DNA of 64,000 nt from positions 613 through 64,612 of the forward strand of contig MNZJ01000025.1 in assembly GCA_001873565.1 (NCBI GenBank), given 5' to 3'. Of this stretch, positions 3,563 through 62,804 are shown one piece after another. Each line of letters begins with the position of its first letter. Within the stretch, counting starts at the first letter, position 1. Source of the DNA: Candidatus Peregrinibacteria bacterium CG2_30_44_17 (GTDB lineage: Bacteria > Patescibacteriota > Gracilibacteria > UBA1369 > UBA12470). Below the pieces are notes generated by a model. That model searched no databases, was not told the origin of the DNA, and worked only from the letters and a program-made list of their open reading frames with translations. The translations under genes were made by a program, and so were the position numbers.

Positions 3563-4666
3563 CTAGAGTTTAAGCGGCATAATTATATGCACATATTCTG
3601 TTTTCTTCAAGGGTTTTATCGTGACGGGGCTTACTTTGTCGACCATTTCAACAAAAACCTTGTCGTCATGGATACTAGCCAAGACATCGAGAATATACTG
3701 TGCATTCAGGGCGACTTTGTTGTTTTCTCCTTTTATGACAACGTCGACATCGGCACGACCCTCTCCAACTTGTGTTTCATCGGTAGAGACAACAAGAGTA
3801 CCGTCATTTGTAACGGATATCTTAACGTTGTTATTTGTCTCCATAACAAATAGGCTGACTTTTTTAACAGCAAGAACGAGGTCGTCAACGACGACCTCGC
3901 ACTGTGTTTTAGACTCTTTTGGAAGTATTTTTTCGTAATCAGGGAAGTGGCCCTCGATAAGTCTTGATATAAGAACAGTATCTCCGGATTTAAACATTAC
4001 CTGGTTGTTAGCAACGCGAACCTCTATAGAGCCTTTTTGAGAAGATATTATCTTACCAAGCTCGATAACCGTCCTGGCTGGAACAATACAGTCCTTGTCC
4101 TCTCCAGATCCGGTGTTCAACTTAAGAACTTTCTCAGATAGCCTATAACTGTCGGTTGCGACCATGCGAAGCTCGTTCTTTTTAAACCTAAACAAAACTC
4201 CTGTAAGAACAGGCCTGACTGCGTTAGTAGATGCTGCAAAAGCAACCTGATCAATTGCGTCTTTAAAGCTATCAACTGGAATTTCATAAGTAACGGCGTC
4301 CTCGATTTTAGGTATCAAAGGGAACTCTTCTGCGGAAATACCTTTTATTTTCGTTTCCGAATGACTTGCTTTTACAGACAAACTCATCCCATCCTCAAGT
4401 TTTAATTCAACATCGCCATCTTTCAAAAGCCCAACATAGCTGGAAAATATCTTGGCGGGTATAGTTACACTTCCTTCGTTAACGACATCGGCATCAATAA
4501 TTGTCTTTATTGCAATCTCAAGATTTGTTGCAGAAAAAACAACCTTCTTGCCCTCAACACTAATAAGTATGTTGTTTAAAACGGGTAAGGTGTTGTTAGG
4601 ACTAACAGCCTTGTTTACAATATTAAGAGCGCTTGCCAAAGCTTTTTGTGAACATTTTACTTTCAT
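3563..4666 (-). CDS. dnaN: DNA polymerase III beta sliding clamp
   Basis: 367-aa ORF of three-domain clamp length. Sequence pattern from N-terminus MKVKCSQKALASALNIV through C-terminal IIMPLKL is typical of DnaN. Confidence 0.9.
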   Translation of the reverse strand: MKVKCSQKALASALNIVNKAVSPNNTLPVLNNILISVEGKKVVFSATNLEIAIKTIIDADVVNEGSVTIPAKIFSSYVGLLKDGDVELKLEDGMSLSVKASHSETKIKGISAEEFPLIPKIEDAVTYEIPVDSFKDAIDQVAFAASTNAVRPVLTGVLFRFKKNELRMVATDSYRLSEKVLKLNTGSGEDKDCIVPARTVIELGKIISSQKGSIEVRVANNQVMFKSGDTVLISRLIEGHFPDYEKILPKESKTQCEVVVDDLVLAVKKVSLFVMETNNNVKISVTNDGTLVVSTDETQVGEGRADVDVVIKGENNKVALNAQYILDVLASIHDDKVFVEMVDKVSPVTIKPLKKTEYVHIIMPLKL

Positions 4667-5056
4667 AATTTTTGTTTATTAAATTCTTTTGAATTATACG
4701 TTCTTACTCAATTATTCTCAAAATCTTTTACAAAATACAAGTTGCCAACTTATTAAAAGAATTTTGCACAAACACACAAACACAAACAATCTCTATTTTT
4801 TTATTATATATAAATATATAAACAGTTGTAATAGAGAGGTATTAACAAAAACAAAAAAAGATTGTGATATATATATAAACAAACACTTATGACAATAAAA
4901 AACACCACTGGAAGCAAACAAAAACACAGCTCTTTTGTACAAATTGTGCAAAACTAAACAAAGAGAATCGCGGCTCCCAGACCTAGAAGTAGCGGTGAAC
5001 AAAAATATAAACCTTTAAAACCCTAATAGGATTGTGCAAAACAGGTGCACGAAATG
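4667..5056. promoter_or_regulatory. Candidate replication-origin-like region upstream of dnaN
   Basis: 390-nt non-coding gap. DnaA-box-like 9-mers fit TTWTNCACA: TTTTGCACA (4762-4770) and its inverse TGTGCAAAA (4945-4953 and 5033-5041). The exact 12-mer ATTGTGCAAAAC occurs at 4943-4954 and 5031-5042. An AT-rich tract at about 4795-4885 contains repeated ATATATAAAC. Confidence 0.4.
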
Positions 5057-54511: not shown

Positions 54512-56173
54512 ATGCCAAAGAAGCATAAAATCAGCAGCAAACTAAAAATCGCAATATACTCTGTCGTAGCGGTATTGGCGACGCTAATGCTGGTAGCAAT
54601 TTATGCGCTCGGTCCACTTAAGACATTTCTTCCAAACATATGCAATTTGACAGGTACGATTTTCGGAAGCAGGACGTACTTGATACTTTTCCAAAACAAT
54701 TACGAGATTAGGCCTACGGGAGGGTTCATATCGGCTTACGGAGTACTCACTATAAATCACGGGATTCCGGGGATTCAGTTCTACGACGTGTACGGAGAGG
54801 TAGATGAGCACGAATACATAGATCCACCACACTATCCAATGCAGGAGCTACTGGGTGGCCCGACATACGGAGGCTACACATTTCGTGATACCAACTATTA
54901 CGTGGATTTCCGTGATTCGGCGCAAGAGATGTTAGACTTCTATCACATTACTCAGCCTGAGTCTGAGATAGACGGCATAGTTGCAATAGACTTCACTATG
55001 CTCGAAAGCTTGGTTGGACTATACGGTCCGGTTAAGGCAGGCGATTTCGAGCTCACGGAGAACAATTTATTCGAAACGCTTTCAGCTGAAGTATCAGATA
55101 TAAACAGGCACGACGCGGAAGAAATTTATGGTCGCAAAGACATCATGAAAGATGTCGCAAAAGACATCATAAAAAACGCAATCCTGAGCCCTTTCAAGTA
55201 CAGAGGTTTCTCAGCCCTAATCGCAAAAAATCTCGATGAAAAGCACGTAATTCTTTGGTTCGCAGACGAAGGGTTGGAATCAAAGGCGATAAGGCTCGGA
55301 TGGTCAGGCACGATGCCGGAAGATTACGAAGACTTACTTGCAGTAAGCGAAGCTAATCTGGGCGGGATGAAAAACGACAGATATATGGCTCGCAACATCA
55401 AGTACGAAGTTGATATTCAGGAAGATCAAATTGTTTGCAATCTAGAAGTCACGATGGATCATTTCGGCGGAGAAAACATTCCGCTAAGCGGTGACTACAA
55501 AGGATATCTCCGTGCATATATACCGTCAGAGGCAACTCAAATCACGGACAAAACCGAAGAGTCAAAAGGCAACTATAAATCTTTAGGCGAGATAATATAT
55601 TTGTCCAAGACTGAAGAAAAAACCGTTGAATTCGAGTACACATTACCGATAAGCATTATTGAAGACGGCACATATTCACTGGATCTGGTGAAGCAACCAG
55701 GGACGGAGGCGGACAATTACGAAATAATTATTCATACTCCTCAAGGTTCGACGCTCGAAAGTGAGAGTTTTACGACTCATGAAGAACACGCATATTTATC
55801 AACAGGCCTGAGCACAGACCAACGCTTCGAACTAACTATAATTCCCGATGAAACGGAGCCGCGAATTCACTCGCATGAAATCGTAGAACTTAACAAAATT
55901 TGGATAGGGTTCAACGAGCCTCTGGATTGCGATACAGCCTCAGATCCTTTTGCTTACGCAATAACGGACACAAACACGGCAGCATCAGAGACAGACACTG
56001 TCTACATAGACACTATAACCTGTTCTGGCAGGGATGTTTGGCTAGACACAATAGGCATGACTAGCCAAAACGAAGAGTTCTACGAGATAATTTTGCGCAA
56101 TATCCGCGACAAAGCAGGTAACTATATCGACCCGAATCCACGCACGATCACAGTCGTGCAACGTGGCCTATAA
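54512..56173 (+). CDS. DUF4012-domain membrane-anchored protein
   Basis: N-terminal TM helix. NNYEIRPTGGFISAYGV matches the DUF4012 core (E.R.TGGF.G.YG). An AAGGAG Shine-Dalgarno site lies upstream. Confidence 0.7.
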   Translation: MPKKHKISSKLKIAIYSVVAVLATLMLVAIYALGPLKTFLPNICNLTGTIFGSRTYLILFQNNYEIRPTGGFISAYGVLTINHGIPGIQFYDVYGEVDEHEYIDPPHYPMQELLGGPTYGGYTFRDTNYYVDFRDSAQEMLDFYHITQPESEIDGIVAIDFTMLESLVGLYGPVKAGDFELTENNLFETLSAEVSDINRHDAEEIYGRKDIMKDVAKDIIKNAILSPFKYRGFSALIAKNLDEKHVILWFADEGLESKAIRLGWSGTMPEDYEDLLAVSEANLGGMKNDRYMARNIKYEVDIQEDQIVCNLEVTMDHFGGENIPLSGDYKGYLRAYIPSEATQITDKTEESKGNYKSLGEIIYLSKTEEKTVEFEYTLPISIIEDGTYSLDLVKQPGTEADNYEIIIHTPQGSTLESESFTTHEEHAYLSTGLSTDQRFELTIIPDETEPRIHSHEIVELNKIWIGFNEPLDCDTASDPFAYAITDTNTAASETDTVYIDTITCSGRDVWLDTIGMTSQNEEFYEIILRNIRDKAGNYIDPNPRTITVVQRGL

Positions 56174-58947: not shown

Positions 58948-58978
58948 ATACAGATAAAATTATGTCTAAAACTAACCT

Positions 58979-59017
58979 GCGCGAAGCGCTCCATGGAACA
59001 AAACCCCTAAGTCCTAA
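58979..59017 (+). promoter_or_regulatory. Leader boxes GCGCGAAGCGCTCCAT and CCCTAAGTCCTAA (copy 2)
   Basis: The 16-mer at 58979-58994 is identical to 31865-31880. The 13-mer at 59005-59017 is identical to 31923-31935. Confidence 0.7.
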
Positions 59018-59033
59018 CTACAAAAAGCACCTC

Positions 59034-59792
59034 ATGGATTTCAAAGAAGCAATTAACATTATCGAACAGCGCGGAGACTTCAATCAGTATGCGAAGTTAC
59101 GTACTGTTTTTGAAGATAAATTACAGGAGTTGGACAGGTCGGACTACACGGAAAGAGGGCTTTGCTACTATTACCTCTTAGTTAGCTTGCTCAAAGCACA
59201 CTTGGTTTACGATACGGAAGAGTGTAGGGAGTTTTATACAAGAATGGACATCGAATTCCAGAAGCAGGAAGAGAAATACAAAGAGGAGAGGGCAAGATTC
59301 TCAGGCATGGAGATTGCGGATTTTTACCATCTAATGGAGCGTTGTTACAGCTCGCTCGAGATCATATACGAGAAGAAAGACTTTGCAGAGAGCCGCAAGA
59401 AATCTTATGAAAGGAAGATGATTTTTAGGAAAAACGCATATTGGTTCGAAAAAAAATACGGAAGTTGGCTCGAATACGAACTGCTGCAACTTACATGTCT
59501 ATATGGCGACAGTTTCGTTAGATGGGGAATAACTGCATTAGCTTTTAGCTTTGTAGTAGCTTTCTTATATTTCTTGATAGACCTGCCTGTCGCAGAGCAG
59601 CACAAAATGGTTTCAGGCCTCGGAGGGCACTGGTTTGATTACATCTACTTCTCTATCATTACCCTGACAAGCTTGGGATTCGGGGATTTCGTACCGATGA
59701 CATTAGCAGGGAAAATACTAACCTCAATAGAAGCATTTTTTGGATTCGTAATGCTTGGTATTTTTATCACACTGATACAGAAAAAAATCTAG
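59034..59792 (+). CDS. Two-TM potassium channel (Ion_trans_2) with N-terminal soluble domain
   Basis: K+ selectivity filter TLTSLGFGD lies between two C-terminal TM helices. Start set at the ATG at 59034, because 58962-59033 carries a nucleotide-level repeat shared, in a different frame, with the acyP leader. Confidence 0.7.
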   Translation: MDFKEAINIIEQRGDFNQYAKLRTVFEDKLQELDRSDYTERGLCYYYLLVSLLKAHLVYDTEECREFYTRMDIEFQKQEEKYKEERARFSGMEIADFYHLMERCYSSLEIIYEKKDFAESRKKSYERKMIFRKNAYWFEKKYGSWLEYELLQLTCLYGDSFVRWGITALAFSFVVAFLYFLIDLPVAEQHKMVSGLGGHWFDYIYFSIITLTSLGFGDFVPMTLAGKILTSIEAFFGFVMLGIFITLIQKKI

Positions 59793-59801
59793 GCCCTAAT
59801 G

Positions 59802-60446
59802 CTATTTCTGCAAAAGCCACCAAAGAATTGGTTGTAGTCCCAGAATGACAGCGAGAAGGATTATATAAACCTTCGAATTCACTTTTTCCAGCTCCAATTG
59901 ATTCTCGAGTGATTTAGCAGTCTGCAGGTAATTCCTCGCAATAGATTTGATTTTTTCAACCTTGGCTTCGGATTTCCTGCCTTCGGCCTTGAATTCAAGT
60001 AGAGGAACAGAGTGTTGGACTTGCGCTTCAAGTTGACCGACTCTGTAATTAGCTATTTCAAGCTTCTGTTGGTATTCCTTAATATCATCCCGTGCCTCTT
60101 TAAAAAGAATTTCATAAACGCTCTCAGACTTATCTTCCTTGACTACGTCTTCGCCCAAAATGCGTCCAACTTCCGCATGCACGTCAATTGCCGGACCATC
60201 TTGAGCGGCAAAGTTATTGATAGAACGATGTATGCGATGAGAATCATCCATCTCGTGATCGCCAACATCAGCTCGTGGAACATAGCCGGAGTTAAAAGAT
60301 TTGACCTCGTTCCCATTGAGTCTGATAAAACCATTAATTTTACGCGCCGTAAGCCGTCCTCCGCGTATATAACGGTCCAGCGTCCTAAGCGATATGCCAA
60401 GTGCCTCTGAAGCCGATTTCCGATCTACTGTGTACGAATCACTCAT
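59802..60446 (-). CDS. Tail-anchored DNA-binding protein: excisionase/MerR-type HTH + coiled coil + C-terminal TM helix
   Basis: 214 aa. The N-terminus SASEALGISLRTLDRYIRGGRLTARKINGFIRL fits the HTH_17 pattern. The middle is heptad-rich (EYQQKLEIANYRVGQLEAQV). The last about 22 aa are hydrophobic (VYIILLAVILGLQPILWWLL). Confidence 0.65.
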   Translation of the reverse strand: MSDSYTVDRKSASEALGISLRTLDRYIRGGRLTARKINGFIRLNGNEVKSFNSGYVPRADVGDHEMDDSHRIHRSINNFAAQDGPAIDVHAEVGRILGEDVVKEDKSESVYEILFKEARDDIKEYQQKLEIANYRVGQLEAQVQHSVPLLEFKAEGRKSEAKVEKIKSIARNYLQTAKSLENQLELEKVNSKVYIILLAVILGLQPILWWLLQK

Positions 60447-60496
60447 TTTTCATTTTTATTTATACCCAAATACATATTAATCACCGACAGACAACT

Positions 60497-60634
60497 TGTC
60501 TAGACAAAATAGACGGCGTGTCTACTTGATGTCTACTAGTGACTAGTCCAGAAAGAGGCTTAAAGCCTAGGCAGTAGACGAGCTGTCTGGACATGTCTAC
60601 CTTGCTGTCTAGACAAAATAGACAGGCTGTCTAT
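60497..60634. repeat. Iteron/palindrome cluster upstream of the tail-anchored HTH gene
   Basis: The 18-mer TGTCTAGACAAAATAGAC is exact at 60497-60514 and 60606-60623, and each copy starts with the palindrome TGTCTAGACA. Additional GTCTAC/GTAGAC/GTCTGGAC units lie at 60520-60525, 60531-60536, 60574-60579, 60585-60592 and 60595-60600. The centre has the palindrome CTAGTGACTAG (60535-60545) and the hairpin AGGCT-TAA-AGCCT. Confidence 0.85.
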
Positions 60635-60875
60635 GCTGTTTGGATAGGCGGAAATGAGATATGAACTAGGACACATGCTCGCTATGCAGGTTTGTGGCGG
60701 GAAACATGGTTTTGACGTGGTGCGTTTTGTATTGCTGAGTGTCTAATCGACTAAGCAAAAGAGGCTGGTTCTAGGGCGAAAATCTATAGGCGATATCACA
60801 AGGTAGCTGGCGCGTGCGCCAATGAAATGGTATTTTTATGCTCGAAAAATAATTCGAATAATCAATGCTCTCTGA

Positions 60876-61391
60876 ATGGCTAGCAAAAAGAAAAAACCCA
60901 GTTTGGATAGTTGCATAGTTGACAAAAAAGGATCGGTAATCGTTGTGCTTGATAACATACGAAGTCTTCACAATGTTGGAGCTATTTTTCGCACTTGTGA
61001 TGGCGCAGGAGTGAAAAAGATATATCTATGTGGCATGACGGGAACTCCTCCAAGGAGAGAGATTACGAAGACTGCAATAGGGGCGGAAGATACTGTTCCA
61101 TGGGAATATAGACGGTATACGCTGCGGCTTGTTAAAAAGCTGAGAGAGGAGGGTTATCAGATAGTCGCGCTAGAGAAAAACAGTCAAAGCGAAATATTCA
61201 AGAAGGCAAAATACAGAAAAAAAACTTGCTTAATTGTGGGACACGAAATAAATGGTGTAAAGGACTCAGTCTTGGCGCAGTCGGACAAAATCGTACATAT
61301 ACCAATGTATGGAATCAAAGAGTCACTTAACGTAGCGACCGCTTTTGGCATAGCTGTCTACGAGATTGCCAGTCAACTTAATGACCTGTAA
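60876..61391 (+). CDS. SpoU/TrmH-family RNA 2'-O-methyltransferase
   Basis: 171 aa. SLHNVGAIFRTCDGAGV, IVGHEINGV and ESLNVATAFGIAVYE are the three SPOUT motifs. Confidence 0.8.
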   Translation: MASKKKKPSLDSCIVDKKGSVIVVLDNIRSLHNVGAIFRTCDGAGVKKIYLCGMTGTPPRREITKTAIGAEDTVPWEYRRYTLRLVKKLREEGYQIVALEKNSQSEIFKKAKYRKKTCLIVGHEINGVKDSVLAQSDKIVHIPMYGIKESLNVATAFGIAVYEIASQLNDL

Positions 61392-61392
61392 G

Positions 61393-62397
61393 ATGCCTCT
61401 GATGGTAAAAGCGTTAAAAAAAATCATTAAGTATACGGTCCTGCTATCCATATTGTTGTTGTTCTTGGCATGGTATTTCTTGGTTGGGCTGCATGGATCT
61501 AGCTCAGGCGAAGAGTTTAACAGAGGTGAGAACGGACTTTGGATTAAGCACGCATGGGTTGGTAATGAGCAGGACACGAGTGTTGTAGAAGATTTAGCTC
61601 TCAAGCTCGCCAAATACGACATTAAATACGTCTACGTTCACACTGGCCCTATAGATAGTGATGGAACTATCCCGGAGGAGCGGTACAAATTCGCAGAAGA
61701 GTTCATAGACATACTGACAGCCAAGAATCCGGAGGTTGTTCCTCTTGCGTGGCTCGGTCAAATTAGATCGGATATAGATATAGACGACCCGGAAATACGG
61801 TCCAATATAGTAGAAACATGCGCAAAACTTGTTTCCGAAACAGGATATGCAGGGATACATTATGATATTGAACCTGTTCCGCACGACGATCAGGGTTTTT
61901 TGGACCTGCTTCAAGAAACACGAGACAAACTTGGAGACGAAACTTTTATTTCGATAGCGACAGATGAATGGCAGCCTACTCTTGTGAGCGATGTCGTTGG
62001 AGTTATTTTGGATCAAACCATCGAAAGCTACTGGGAGACGGAATATTTCCAGGCGTCAGCGGAGATAGTGGATCAAATAGTCGTTATGACATACGACACG
62101 TCTCTAGGTGACTCTGAGCACTACGAGTGGCTTGTGGAGCAACAAGTTATATATTTGTCTCAGGTCTTGGCGCCATATGGCAAAGAGCTTCTGATTGGCA
62201 TACCAACTTACGAAGATGACAAAGAAAGCTTCGACCCGGAAGTGGAAAACATGGAAACGGGCCTAAACGGTATCATCGCAGGATTAAATAACAAGCGTAC
62301 GACACGTGACGCATTCACAGGAGTTGCTATCTATGCTAACTGGGAAACCACTGAATCCGAATGGGATATATACGAAAAACTTTGGCAAGGACTATGA
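61393..62397 (+). CDS. Membrane-anchored TIM-barrel glycosyl-hydrolase-like protein (GH18-like)
   Basis: N-terminal TM helix. AGIHYDIEP resembles the GH18 D-x-D-x-E catalytic strand. Start taken at the ATG at 61393. Confidence 0.45.
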   Translation: MPLMVKALKKIIKYTVLLSILLLFLAWYFLVGLHGSSSGEEFNRGENGLWIKHAWVGNEQDTSVVEDLALKLAKYDIKYVYVHTGPIDSDGTIPEERYKFAEEFIDILTAKNPEVVPLAWLGQIRSDIDIDDPEIRSNIVETCAKLVSETGYAGIHYDIEPVPHDDQGFLDLLQETRDKLGDETFISIATDEWQPTLVSDVVGVILDQTIESYWETEYFQASAEIVDQIVVMTYDTSLGDSEHYEWLVEQQVIYLSQVLAPYGKELLIGIPTYEDDKESFDPEVENMETGLNGIIAGLNNKRTTRDAFTGVAIYANWETTESEWDIYEKLWQGL

Positions 62398-62804
62398 TAA
62401 ACCTCACTTACTCAAACCAGACAAGAGACACAGTAGACGAAACAATCTTCGAGAAACTGCTGCCGAAAATTCAAAAAAGACATCTTAATGCTGAGGGCGA
62501 AATCAGTCTTACCATCGTAGACGACAAGACTATACAAGAGCTGAACCGCGAGTATCGCGGGAAGGACAAGCCAACAGATGTCATCTCGTTCGCCTACAGT
62601 GAGAGCGAAAAATTCCCCGGTGAGAACATGCTTGGTGAAATATACATTTCGATAAAAACAGCAAAAAGACAGTCCGAAGACTTGGATAGAGAGCTGAAAT
62701 TTCTATTCATCCATGGAGTACTTCACTTGCTTGGATACACGCATGAGACAGATGAAAAATACTCCGAAATGATGGAAGAAACAGAGGAAATTATTCGGCT
62801 ATAA
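62394..62804 (+). CDS. ybeY: Endoribonuclease YbeY
   Basis: Zinc motif HGVLHLLGYTHE. ATGA overlap with the upstream gene. Confidence 0.88.
   Translation: MINLTYSNQTRDTVDETIFEKLLPKIQKRHLNAEGEISLTIVDDKTIQELNREYRGKDKPTDVISFAYSESEKFPGENMLGEIYISIKTAKRQSEDLDRELKFLFIHGVLHLLGYTHETDEKYSEMMEETEEIIRL

Follow-up and report, generated by a model that had tools for sequence, protein, structure and literature searches.

A TAGACA half-site array at the gene of a predicted tail-anchored winged-helix protein of Peregrinibacteria: a candidate chromosome anchor

What could a small protein that joins a predicted DNA-binding domain to a hydrophobic C-terminal tail be doing with a dense array of short repeats placed directly upstream of its own gene? 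The question is raised by a locus in a stretch of 64,000 nucleotides (hereafter, the window) from Candidatus Peregrinibacteria bacterium CG2_30_44_17 (contig MNZJ01000025.1, positions 613 to 64,612), in which a protein of 214 amino acids is encoded on the minus strand next to the array. The original prediction, made from the sequence alone, had taken the pair for a possible tether between membrane and DNA, reminiscent of RacA from Bacillus subtilis. Here, we describe the protein family and the array, which follows the gene through 80 genomes, overlaps the -35 element of its promoter and, in most relatives, also runs into the coding sequence. The best explanation that we can offer, and to which we give an even chance, is that of a tail-anchored, autorepressing DNA binder whose membrane-pinned array serves as an anchor of the chromosome.

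Architecture and family of the 214-residue protein

Structure prediction, a check that the original prediction had proposed, was carried out with AlphaFold2 (AF2) from an alignment of 120 family sequences and yielded a winged helix-turn-helix (wHTH) domain, a disordered linker and a single long helix, with a mean predicted local distance difference test (pLDDT) score of 81. The following features can be distinguished:

59802..60446 including the stop codon, minus strand: coding sequence of the predicted tail-anchored HTH protein, 214 amino acids, with an ATG start (list of open reading frames, ORFs)
60291..60434, minus strand: MerR/Xis-type winged HTH, residues 5-52 (AF2, Foldseek, invariant columns)
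60132..60281, minus strand: disordered linker, residues 56-105 (pLDDT 40-58)
59871..60131, minus strand: long alpha-helix with heptad pattern, a putative coiled coil, residues 106-192 (AF2 and periodicity)
59994..60071, minus strand: near-invariant block within the long helix, residues 126-151 (120-sequence alignment)
59811..59870, minus strand: predicted transmembrane tail anchor, residues 193-212, followed by two residues (hydropathy, hydrophobic moment)

The combination that had been read from the sequence, an Xis/MerR-type HTH, a coiled-coil-like helix and a hydrophobic C-terminal helix, is thus recovered by Pfam, AF2, hydropathy and the heptad signal. Residues 5-52 are modelled as a beta-alpha-alpha-beta-beta-alpha winged helix (pLDDT about 90) and residues 106-213 as one unbroken helix (pLDDT >94). 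In Pfam, HTH_17 matches residues 12-50 of the window protein with E=9.5e-5, under the gathering score, and MerR matches weakly; among the 120 family members, HTH_17 is found in 116 and MerR in 96. Nothing beyond the HTH is covered in the family proteins by Pfam or NCBIfam, and no effector-binding domain is present in the 214-residue protein according to Pfam and the AF2 model. Foldseek aligned the N-terminal domain to Pukovnik Xis (4j2n), RacA (5i44), BldC (6ama), RdfS (8dgl) and the Par protein of plasmid pSK1 (8csh), with target-length template-modelling scores (TM-scores) of 0.56-0.78, root-mean-square deviations (rmsd) of 1.1-2.2 Å and probabilities of about 1.0; the best structural match is the phage Xis (TM-score 0.74, rmsd 1.1 Å).

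Because residues 193-211, VYIILLAVILGLQPILWWL, have a mean Kyte-Doolittle hydropathy of 2.23 and a hydrophobic moment of just 0.18, the C-terminal segment, after which only LQK follows, is read as a transmembrane tail anchor and not as an amphipathic helix. The long helix is a plausible coiled coil, since the family-averaged hydrophobicity of residues 106-190 displays heptad periodicity (3.5-3.6 residues and the 7/3 harmonic).

The family is real, conserved and previously unannotated. Relatives of 200-230 amino acids number 227 in the database, all from Peregrinibacteria, Peribacteria or 'Gracilibacteria'-labelled members of the Candidate Phyla Radiation (CPR) and all without a protein name, and an exhaustive profile search collected 836 clusters (50% identity) at E<=1e-3, 137 of them at E<=1e-30. 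At least 100 GTDB species genomes of Peregrinibacteria and Peribacteria carry the gene, in one copy and in conserved synteny. The recognition motif S-x-R21-T22-L-D24-R25-Y26 of the wHTH is invariant in the alignment, in which the linker between the wHTH and the long helix is variable. Within the long helix, the block Q126-x3-E130-x-ANYRVGQLE140-x-Q-x3-S146-x-P148-x-LE is invariant or nearly so across the 120 sequences, including three near-invariant glutamines (Q126, Q138 and Q142), and is probably a surface for oligomerization or partner binding. Q205 and P206 of the predicted transmembrane helix are invariant and W209 nearly so; L208 is invariant in an alignment of 34 sequences.

The half-site array at and inside the gene

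The array is composed of 6-bp half-sites, TAGACA or its complement TGTCTA, phased at 10-11 and 22 bp, rather than of the 18-mer iterons originally described. The 18-mer TGTCTAGACAAAATAGAC does occur twice, at 60497 and 60606, 109 bp apart, and each copy starts with the palindrome TGTCTAGACA, found in its exact form at just those two places in the window; the pair is part of a 28-nt repeat (89% identity), that is, of one three-site module used twice. Exact half-sites number nine in 60497-60633 versus 34 in the remaining 63.9 kb, such that nine of the 43 exact copies in the window lie within 137 bp (Poisson expectation, about 0.07) and the other 34 are scattered. Variants with one mismatch are located at 60484, 60488, 60510, 60575, 60584 and 60588. 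When up to one mismatch is allowed, four of the five matches to TAGAC-N5-GTCTA in the window fall within the array; among 100 shuffled sequences, the mean was 1.15 and five was never reached. The further GTCTAC- and GTAGAC-type units, which had been placed around a central hairpin, resolve into two sub-arrays flanking a short palindrome:

60484..60536, no strand: promoter-proximal sub-array, with CCGACA and CAGACA variants, TGTCTAGACA at 60497-60506, TAGACg at 60510 and TGTCTA at 60519 and 60530
60556..60568, no strand: short palindrome AGGCTTAAAGCCT, within the 38-bp spacer separating the sub-arrays
60574..60633, no strand: distal sub-array, with TAGACg at 60575, TGTCTGGACA at 60584-60593, TGTCTA at 60594, TGTCTAGACA at 60606-60615, TAGACA at 60619 and TGTCTA at 60628

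For comparison, we used 80 relative loci with 12-kb flanks (831 kb in total; labelled L001 and so on), the four closest of which, L001-L004, encode proteins with 57-74% identity to that of the window. In these four, the upstream DNA has diverged, yet TAGACA, TGTCTAGACA and TGTCCAGACA units are kept in clusters of 7-11, and AGGCTTAAAGCCT is weakly kept as GGyTwwAAGC. Across the 80 loci, the hexamer density is 15.7 per kb at -200..+350 of the start codon versus 0.46 per kb elsewhere, with peaks at -100..0 and +200..+300, and at least four upstream sites are present in 46 loci; certain lineages carry TCGACA or TGGACA in place of TAGACA. The array stays with the gene across the 80 genomes independently of the upstream neighbour, and the repeats are a real conserved cis-element. 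The start-to-start spacings of direct repeats in the non-coding arrays peak at 10-11 bp and at 22 bp, which sets the sites along a single helix face at about one per turn; tail-to-tail pairs of half-sites peak at 4 or 6 bp, and other pairings at 17, 28 and 30-31 bp. Minimal MerR/Xis-type domains, such as BldC and Xis, form cooperative head-to-tail multimers on arrays of short repeats, with about one site per helical turn.

In most relatives, the window clade excepted, 4-13 additional sites are found in the segment of the gene that encodes the disordered linker, and the linker composition of those proteins, VDxVDMSTxxMSIDxxVD, is the translation of the sites: GTA-GAC-A gives Val-Asp and a codon starting with A, A-TG-TCT-A gives Met-Ser, and GTAGACATGTCTAC gives VDMST. 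Val-Asp is encoded as GTAGAC in 117 of 230 cases (51%) in the family gene versus 64 of 900 (7%) in other ORFs of at least 150 amino acids from the same loci, which served as the control for codon usage, and the following base is A in 110 of the 117 versus 38 of the 64. Sites in reverse orientation within the same segment encode other residues (MS, LST and VST), so that selection on the peptide cannot explain the pattern. The codon statistics and the two orientations together indicate selection on the intragenic sites at the level of DNA. Such intragenic arrays lie at about +170..+330 of the gene, for example in L019, L060, L068, L016 and L045, as in most other loci. The invariant RT-L-D-R-Y motif and the K-L-S-T motif are often encoded as cTAGACAgg and tTGTCTAc. 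Members of about 300 amino acids (P0167, P0168, P0170 and P0189) have linkers longer by ~90 residues and rich in VDR/VDK, LST and SRQ repeats, as expected if more TAGACA-type sites were translated there, in each of the three frames.

Three layouts can be recognized. In the window clade, a bipartite upstream array is combined with a linker whose coding segment, like the rest of the coding sequence at 59802..60446, holds no TAGACA sites; the main clade has upstream and intragenic arrays and a Val-Asp-rich linker; and a short clade, with proteins of 166-190 amino acids and a basic linker, has few sites, located at the -35 element, at the start codon (ATG TCT ACn) and in HTH codons. The co-variation of the three layouts with three linker types is the best evidence available here that protein and sites belong together.

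The array overlaps the promoter of the gene, and a weaker element, seen in the consensus scan only, faces the divergent operon that starts with spoU:

60474..60502, minus strand: gene promoter, with -35 TAGACA at 60497-60502, a 17-bp spacer and -10 TAATAT at 60474-60479 (consensus scan)
60610..60637, plus strand: weak promoter-like TAGACA-16-TATGCT facing the spoU operon and overlapping the distal sub-array (consensus scan only)

TAGACA-17-TAATAT is the best promoter-like element on the gene's strand in the window, the TAGACA-17-TAnnnT geometry recurs in L001-L004, and TNGACA-N16-18-TAnnnT is found upstream of the gene in 60 of the 80 loci and never in control stretches drawn from those loci. 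The promoter-proximal site coincides with the -35 hexamer, which an occupied array should therefore occlude. Autorepression thus appears to be built into the locus as an integral part of its design, a well-supported conclusion, and the 214-residue protein very probably binds its own array and regulates its own synthesis.

Directly past the array there is a second motif:

60641..60651, minus strand: CCGCCTATCCA (CCGCCTATACA in relatives)

In the form CCGCCTAT(A/C)CA, it is found in one to three copies upstream of the gene in the window clade and L017 only (L001, 5797-5807; L002, 5566-5576 and 5766-5776; L003, 302-312, 451-461 and 540-550; L017, 5274-5497), often beside a ATGTTTTATAACTTA-like element. 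It may be the site of another factor or part of the divergent promoter.

The surroundings are a fixed chromosomal housekeeping context. The neighbourhood common to the 80 loci is ybeY, a GH18-like gene, spoU, the divergent HTH gene, then murI and guaA; spoU is not always adjacent, another gene intervening in most loci. The divergent neighbour in the window is the following:

60876..61391, plus strand: SpoU-family RNA methyltransferase, first gene of the spoU / GH18-like / ybeY string (PF00588, E=4.9e-37)

Since the reading frames of spoU, the GH18-like gene (343 amino acids) and ybeY overlap within 60876-62804 (61366 before 61391, 62361 before 62397), a single translationally coupled operon, divergent from the HTH gene, is suggested. 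On the other side, a convergent ion-channel gene (58962..59792) stops 9 bp from the end of the HTH gene at 59802, and no terminator-like hairpin was detected between the two (59790-59805). The 429-bp spacer has no Rfam match at the gathering threshold, and a non-coding RNA was rejected on that ground; there is no transfer RNA or transfer-messenger RNA gene anywhere in the window.

Autorepression, membrane anchoring and the rival explanations

The original prediction had offered simple autoregulation as the conservative alternative to a tether. Autoregulation does gain weight from the identity of the proximal palindrome with the -35 element, but it becomes part of the picture and not an alternative to it. 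We propose that the 214-residue protein is a tail-anchored, probably dimeric DNA binder, in which each flexibly attached wHTH would read one TAGACA, and the long helices of two subunits would pair in parallel, so that both tethered DNA-binding domains lie at one end of the dimer and both transmembrane helices at the opposite end. Loading would be cooperative, with many dimers placed side by side and on one helix face, at 10-11-bp phasing, along the ~15 upstream half-sites; occupancy of the -35 hexamer would shut off transcription and so titrate the protein level to the array; and the transmembrane C-terminus would pin the loaded array, and the chromosomal locus with it, to the inner face of the cytoplasmic membrane. 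In this way, a nucleoprotein complex that titrates itself would be held at the membrane, with the ANYRVGQLE..P block driving higher-order assembly or recruiting a partner, and the functional output of the pinned complex would be that of a centromere-like chromosome anchor or organizer, by analogy with RacA, RocS, RicO and pSK1 Par.

Anchoring or segregation as the biological role of the protein is plausible in view of the size and conservation of the array, the pointlessness of a regulator that regulates solely itself and the known precedents; the assignment is tentative and falls somewhat short of even. Bolder, and in our estimate rather unlikely, is the notion of a self-contained one-gene anchor, in which the promoter, and mostly also the coding sequence, would be the single centromere-like site pinned by its own product, and the family would be distantly homologous to RicO, RacA and RocS, with the TAGACA recognition code retained. 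If true, a class of segregation or anchoring proteins would extend past Firmicutes, and a coding sequence would have been shaped as the landing pad of its own product.

Several observations weigh against an anchoring role. The 64-kb window and ~790 kb of the relatives' flanks yielded neither a second array nor an isolated composite site; RacA and RicO, by contrast, use many sites dispersed around the origin. The search for further copies of the palindrome likewise returned none in the 64 kb or the ~790 kb of flanks, and a palindrome unique to this promoter is the very outcome that the original prediction had counted against a tether. The few sites of the short clade imply that a large array is not obligatory. 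No covariation of the recognition helix with the half-site variants TAGACA, TCGACA and TGGACA was found, because the helix motif S-x-R-T-x-D-R-Y and the half-site are both nearly invariant; it is the second base of the site that varies. In a profile search of PDB sequences, RacA matched the N-terminal domain only, at a non-significant E=0.53, and Xis was likewise matched weakly. PF04394 (DUF536, RocS-like_C) is absent for the window protein at E<=1, from the 25 most frequently matched of 142 families among the 120 members, and for three family C-terminal halves at E<=10. As for the origin, the 'oriC-like region at 4.7 kb' of the original prediction is just a 390-bp AT-rich spacer upstream of dnaN (3563..4666, minus strand), with RNase J and no dnaA on its other side; dnaN is 56 kb from the array of the HTH gene, and GC skew is uninformative as an origin test over 64 kb.

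In the region of dnaN and its spacer (window 3563-5056), the spacer holds TTGTGCAAAA(C) or its complement three times, near 4763, 4944 and 5033, and may be an origin with non-canonical boxes. Three exact half-sites occur within 50 bp at 55999-56048 (TGTCTAcaTAGACA ... TAGACA), in the 3'-terminal part of the gene upstream of guaA and 4.4 kb from the main array (chance about 0.02 by a rough Poisson estimate); this mini-cluster was not counted as a second target, being without conservation in L001-L004. A metagenome scan for TGTCTATAGACA-N0-30-TAGACA returned at least 120 stretches and is uninformative as to extra arrays in Peregrinibacteria genomes; among the matches listed, seven carry the family gene and the other dense arrays are unrelated, being archaeal plasmid- or virus-like iterons and simple tandem repeats. 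Dense iteron-like arrays of TGTCTATAGACA/TAGACA were seen on the hot-spring metagenome contigs L090, L107 (6300-6680), L112, L117, L155 (9750-10130) and L173. Those of L107 and L155 adjoin a gene for a conserved protein of 168 amino acids (MNMTKRKSKKETYRDRWLREHP...), with AbrB-, primase/helicase- or DNA-methyltransferase-like genes on the same contigs, and look like replication regions of archaeal plasmids or viruses.

Among the rival explanations, the one that survives best sees the protein as no more than a membrane-anchored autorepressor or local transcription factor, for which the array would be a device of tight cooperative feedback, in the window clade perhaps also controlling spoU-ybeY, with the real job of the protein lying elsewhere, for example in the coiled-coil block or at a few single sites in other promoters. 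Such a regulator would account for the conserved -35 overlap, for the promoter-like element toward spoU within the distal sub-array, for a palindrome unique to the locus in all DNA sampled and for the short clade, with its handful of sites around promoter and start codon. Yet 10-28 half-sites per locus, kept class-wide and even forced into the coding sequence, are far beyond the needs of autorepression; a regulator of itself alone would be without function, the adjacency of spoU is not conserved, and no regulon sites were seen in the window or the relatives' flanks. We regard this explanation as possible but doubtful. Were it correct, the finding would be modest, yet a conserved, unannotated family and its operator would have been defined.

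The invariant Q205 and P206 within the transmembrane helix and the tail-anchored topology without a sensor domain could also suit a membrane-sequestered transcription factor that is freed by regulated intramembrane proteolysis, the Gln-Pro pair acting as the helix breaker for a site-2-type protease and the soluble dimer then acting at distant targets. However, helix-helix packing could just as well account for near-invariant transmembrane residues, the conserved neighbourhood contains no linked protease gene, no distant targets were seen in the DNA sampled, and the self-located array would be left unexplained, all of which makes proteolytic release improbable.

Marginally less probable still is that the array serves something other than the adjoining HTH gene; it might be the target of a different DNA binder, have a role in replication or as iterons, or consist of -35-like decoys. 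TAGACA is indeed one base off the sigma-70 -35 consensus, and unrelated elements, for example the archaeal plasmid- or virus-like L107 and L155, bear TGTCTATAGACA iteron-like arrays; but the array follows the gene in 80 genomes whatever the upstream neighbour, enters the gene's own coding region and changes its layout with the linker type in three clades.

A mobile-element remnant, that is, an excisionase-like gene with attachment-site or recombination-directionality repeats, is scarcely credible despite the HTH_17/excisionase-type domain and the phage Xis as best structural match, given a protein of 214 amino acids with a coiled coil and a transmembrane helix, no integrase among the ORFs near the window locus or, by Pfam, in the conserved neighbourhood, a fixed position among housekeeping genes in at least 100 species and viral contigs whose four matches, generic or unrelated, are each confined to the 45-residue HTH of the N-terminal domain. 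A phage origin was rejected on the last point, and three assignments to known classes were set aside as well: an excisionase or recombination directionality factor (55-80 amino acids beside an integrase) because of the length, the transmembrane helix and the neighbours (ion channel, SpoU, MurI and GuaA); a canonical MerR regulator because there is no effector domain, the promoter spacer is 17 bp rather than an over-long 19-20 bp and the site, instead of lying within the spacer, is the -35 hexamer; and ParB/Noc, with a ParB-type HTH and an N-terminal CTPase domain, because neither the window protein nor the 120 members have a ParB-family match in Pfam.

Comparison with known DNA-membrane anchors

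RacA, RocS, RicO and pSK1 Par form a class defined by a MerR-type wHTH, a coiled coil and an envelope anchor, which in RocS, RicO and probably Par is a C-terminal amphipathic helix (PMC11500499; bioRxiv 10.64898/2026.03.06.710092). The direct membrane anchor that had been imagined in place of the DivIVA interaction of RacA thus has precedents in RocS, RicO and probably pSK1 Par (PMC11500499; bioRxiv 10.64898/2026.03.06.710092), and the likeness to RacA, which holds structurally in the Foldseek comparison, is strengthened as an analogy by RocS and RicO. The 214-residue protein has the N-terminal MerR-type wHTH of ~50 residues (AF2, Foldseek and Pfam) and, in the place of the central coiled coil, a single predicted long helix with a heptad signal, but it departs from the class at the C-terminus, where a hydrophobic segment of 19-20 residues, predicted to be transmembrane, replaces the amphipathic helix or the DivIVA-binding tail. 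The two would be different devices for an equivalent function. On paper, therefore, the protein would work like the members of this class, and we do not file it as a proven one.

The closest parallel is RicO of Staphylococcus aureus (SAUSA300_0383), in which a wHTH and a coiled coil are followed by an amphipathic helix; by occupying nine ricS sites in the vicinity of oriC, it fastens the origins to the membrane (bioRxiv 10.64898/2026.03.06.710092). RicO, compared here by its published description, shares with the window protein the order of a small MerR-like N-terminal HTH, a coiled coil and a C-terminal membrane anchor, bridging DNA and membrane, and it recognizes specific sites, one of them upstream of ricO itself. 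The critical arginine that contacts base and phosphate, R18 in RicO and R19 in RacA, falls at the invariant R25 of the window protein in the non-significant profile alignment to RacA. The ricS1 site is GTTTGTCTGAGGTTAGAC, and the 54-bp probe used in the electrophoretic mobility shift assay reads ...ATTAGACATCAGTTTGTCTGAGGTTAGACATACC... (bioRxiv 10.64898/2026.03.06.710092, supplement), that is, TAGACA-N6-TGTCTG-N4-TAGACA, in which TAGACA is present twice, 22 bp apart, with an inverted TGTCTG in between. The validated probe would thus share both the hexamer and the two-turn spacing of 22 bp with the arrays described here; with a single published site behind it, this likeness is a clue rather than a test. 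According to the authors, ricS contains neither repeat nor palindrome (bioRxiv 10.64898/2026.03.06.710092), despite the TAGACA and TGTCTG of the ricS1 probe. RicO differs in its size (about 318 amino acids), its amphipathic rather than transmembrane anchor, the distribution of its nine single 18-bp sites over ~700 kb around oriC as opposed to one dense array at its own gene, and in having no evident autoregulation, deletion of all ricS sites leaving the RicO level unchanged.

In RocS of Streptococcus pneumoniae, a membrane-DNA bridge for segregation, the wHTH is combined with a dimerizing coiled coil, with a DUF536 module in which three glutamines are essential and with an amphipathic helix (PMC11500499). 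Its coiled-coil oligomerization is required for membrane binding, and its conserved module is needed for function and not for dimerization, to which the ANYRVGQLE block with its three near-invariant glutamines could be the parallel; RocS is set apart by the DUF536 (PF04394) module and the MinD-like amphipathic helix, by DNA binding that follows no defined motif and by its interaction with ParB. The single-protein partition system of the staphylococcal plasmid pSK1 is similar in that Par (PDB 8csh) has a wHTH, a coiled coil and probably a membrane-targeting C-terminal tail (PMC11500499). The DNA-binding domain of Par matches the window N-terminal domain structurally, as judged by Foldseek; Par differs from the window protein in being plasmid-borne and in its DUF536 module, MinD-like helix and other repeat sequences. 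The centromere of pSK1 reportedly consists of repeats directly upstream of par, where it is said to double as the operator of the gene, an arrangement like the one proposed for the locus in the window.

RacA of B. subtilis (PDB 5i41/5i44) resembles the window protein in its MerR-like wHTH flexibly tethered to a coiled coil, and its function is to bind centromere-like sites and anchor the chromosome at the envelope. By contrast, it is sporulation-specific and has no membrane anchor, acting via DivIVA, and it recognizes ram, a GC-rich inverted repeat of 14 bp that occurs 25 times over ~600 kb, within the coding sequences of other genes. BldC of Streptomyces (PDB 6ama/6amk) and the lambda-type or Pukovnik Xis have the same minimal MerR/Xis winged-helix fold, and their loading on repeat arrays fits the 10-11-bp phasing of direct repeats in window-type arrays, but these are soluble proteins of 55-70 amino acids with neither coiled coil nor membrane anchor. 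In the ParR/parC and ParB/parS systems, repeated sites, located beside the partition-operon promoter or overlapping it, are centromere and operator at once, and the first parS of B. subtilis, within the spo0J coding sequence, is a precedent for a centromere site in the binder's own gene; these proteins have different folds (ribbon-helix-helix, or ParB-type HTH with a CTPase) and need a ParM or ParA motor, and no motor gene of either type is linked to the family gene in the conserved neighbourhood (Pfam, synteny).

To our knowledge, chromosome organization and segregation in the ultra-small CPR bacteria, or Patescibacteria, are essentially unknown, and the locus offers a compact testable system of a ~640 bp gene and ~150 bp of sites. 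The linker of most relatives, written by DNA sites, shows with unusual clarity how a coding region can double as a protein-binding array, and bears on how overlapping codes constrain protein evolution. The distribution of the RicO class outside Firmicutes was left open by its authors (bioRxiv 10.64898/2026.03.06.710092). What is new here is the CPR lineage, the predicted transmembrane tail anchor and the array of sites at, and mostly inside, the gene of the putative binder; the family is thus a candidate for the RacA/RocS/RicO class beyond Firmicutes, with what would be a cleaner design, namely, a true transmembrane tail anchor and one dense, self-located array.

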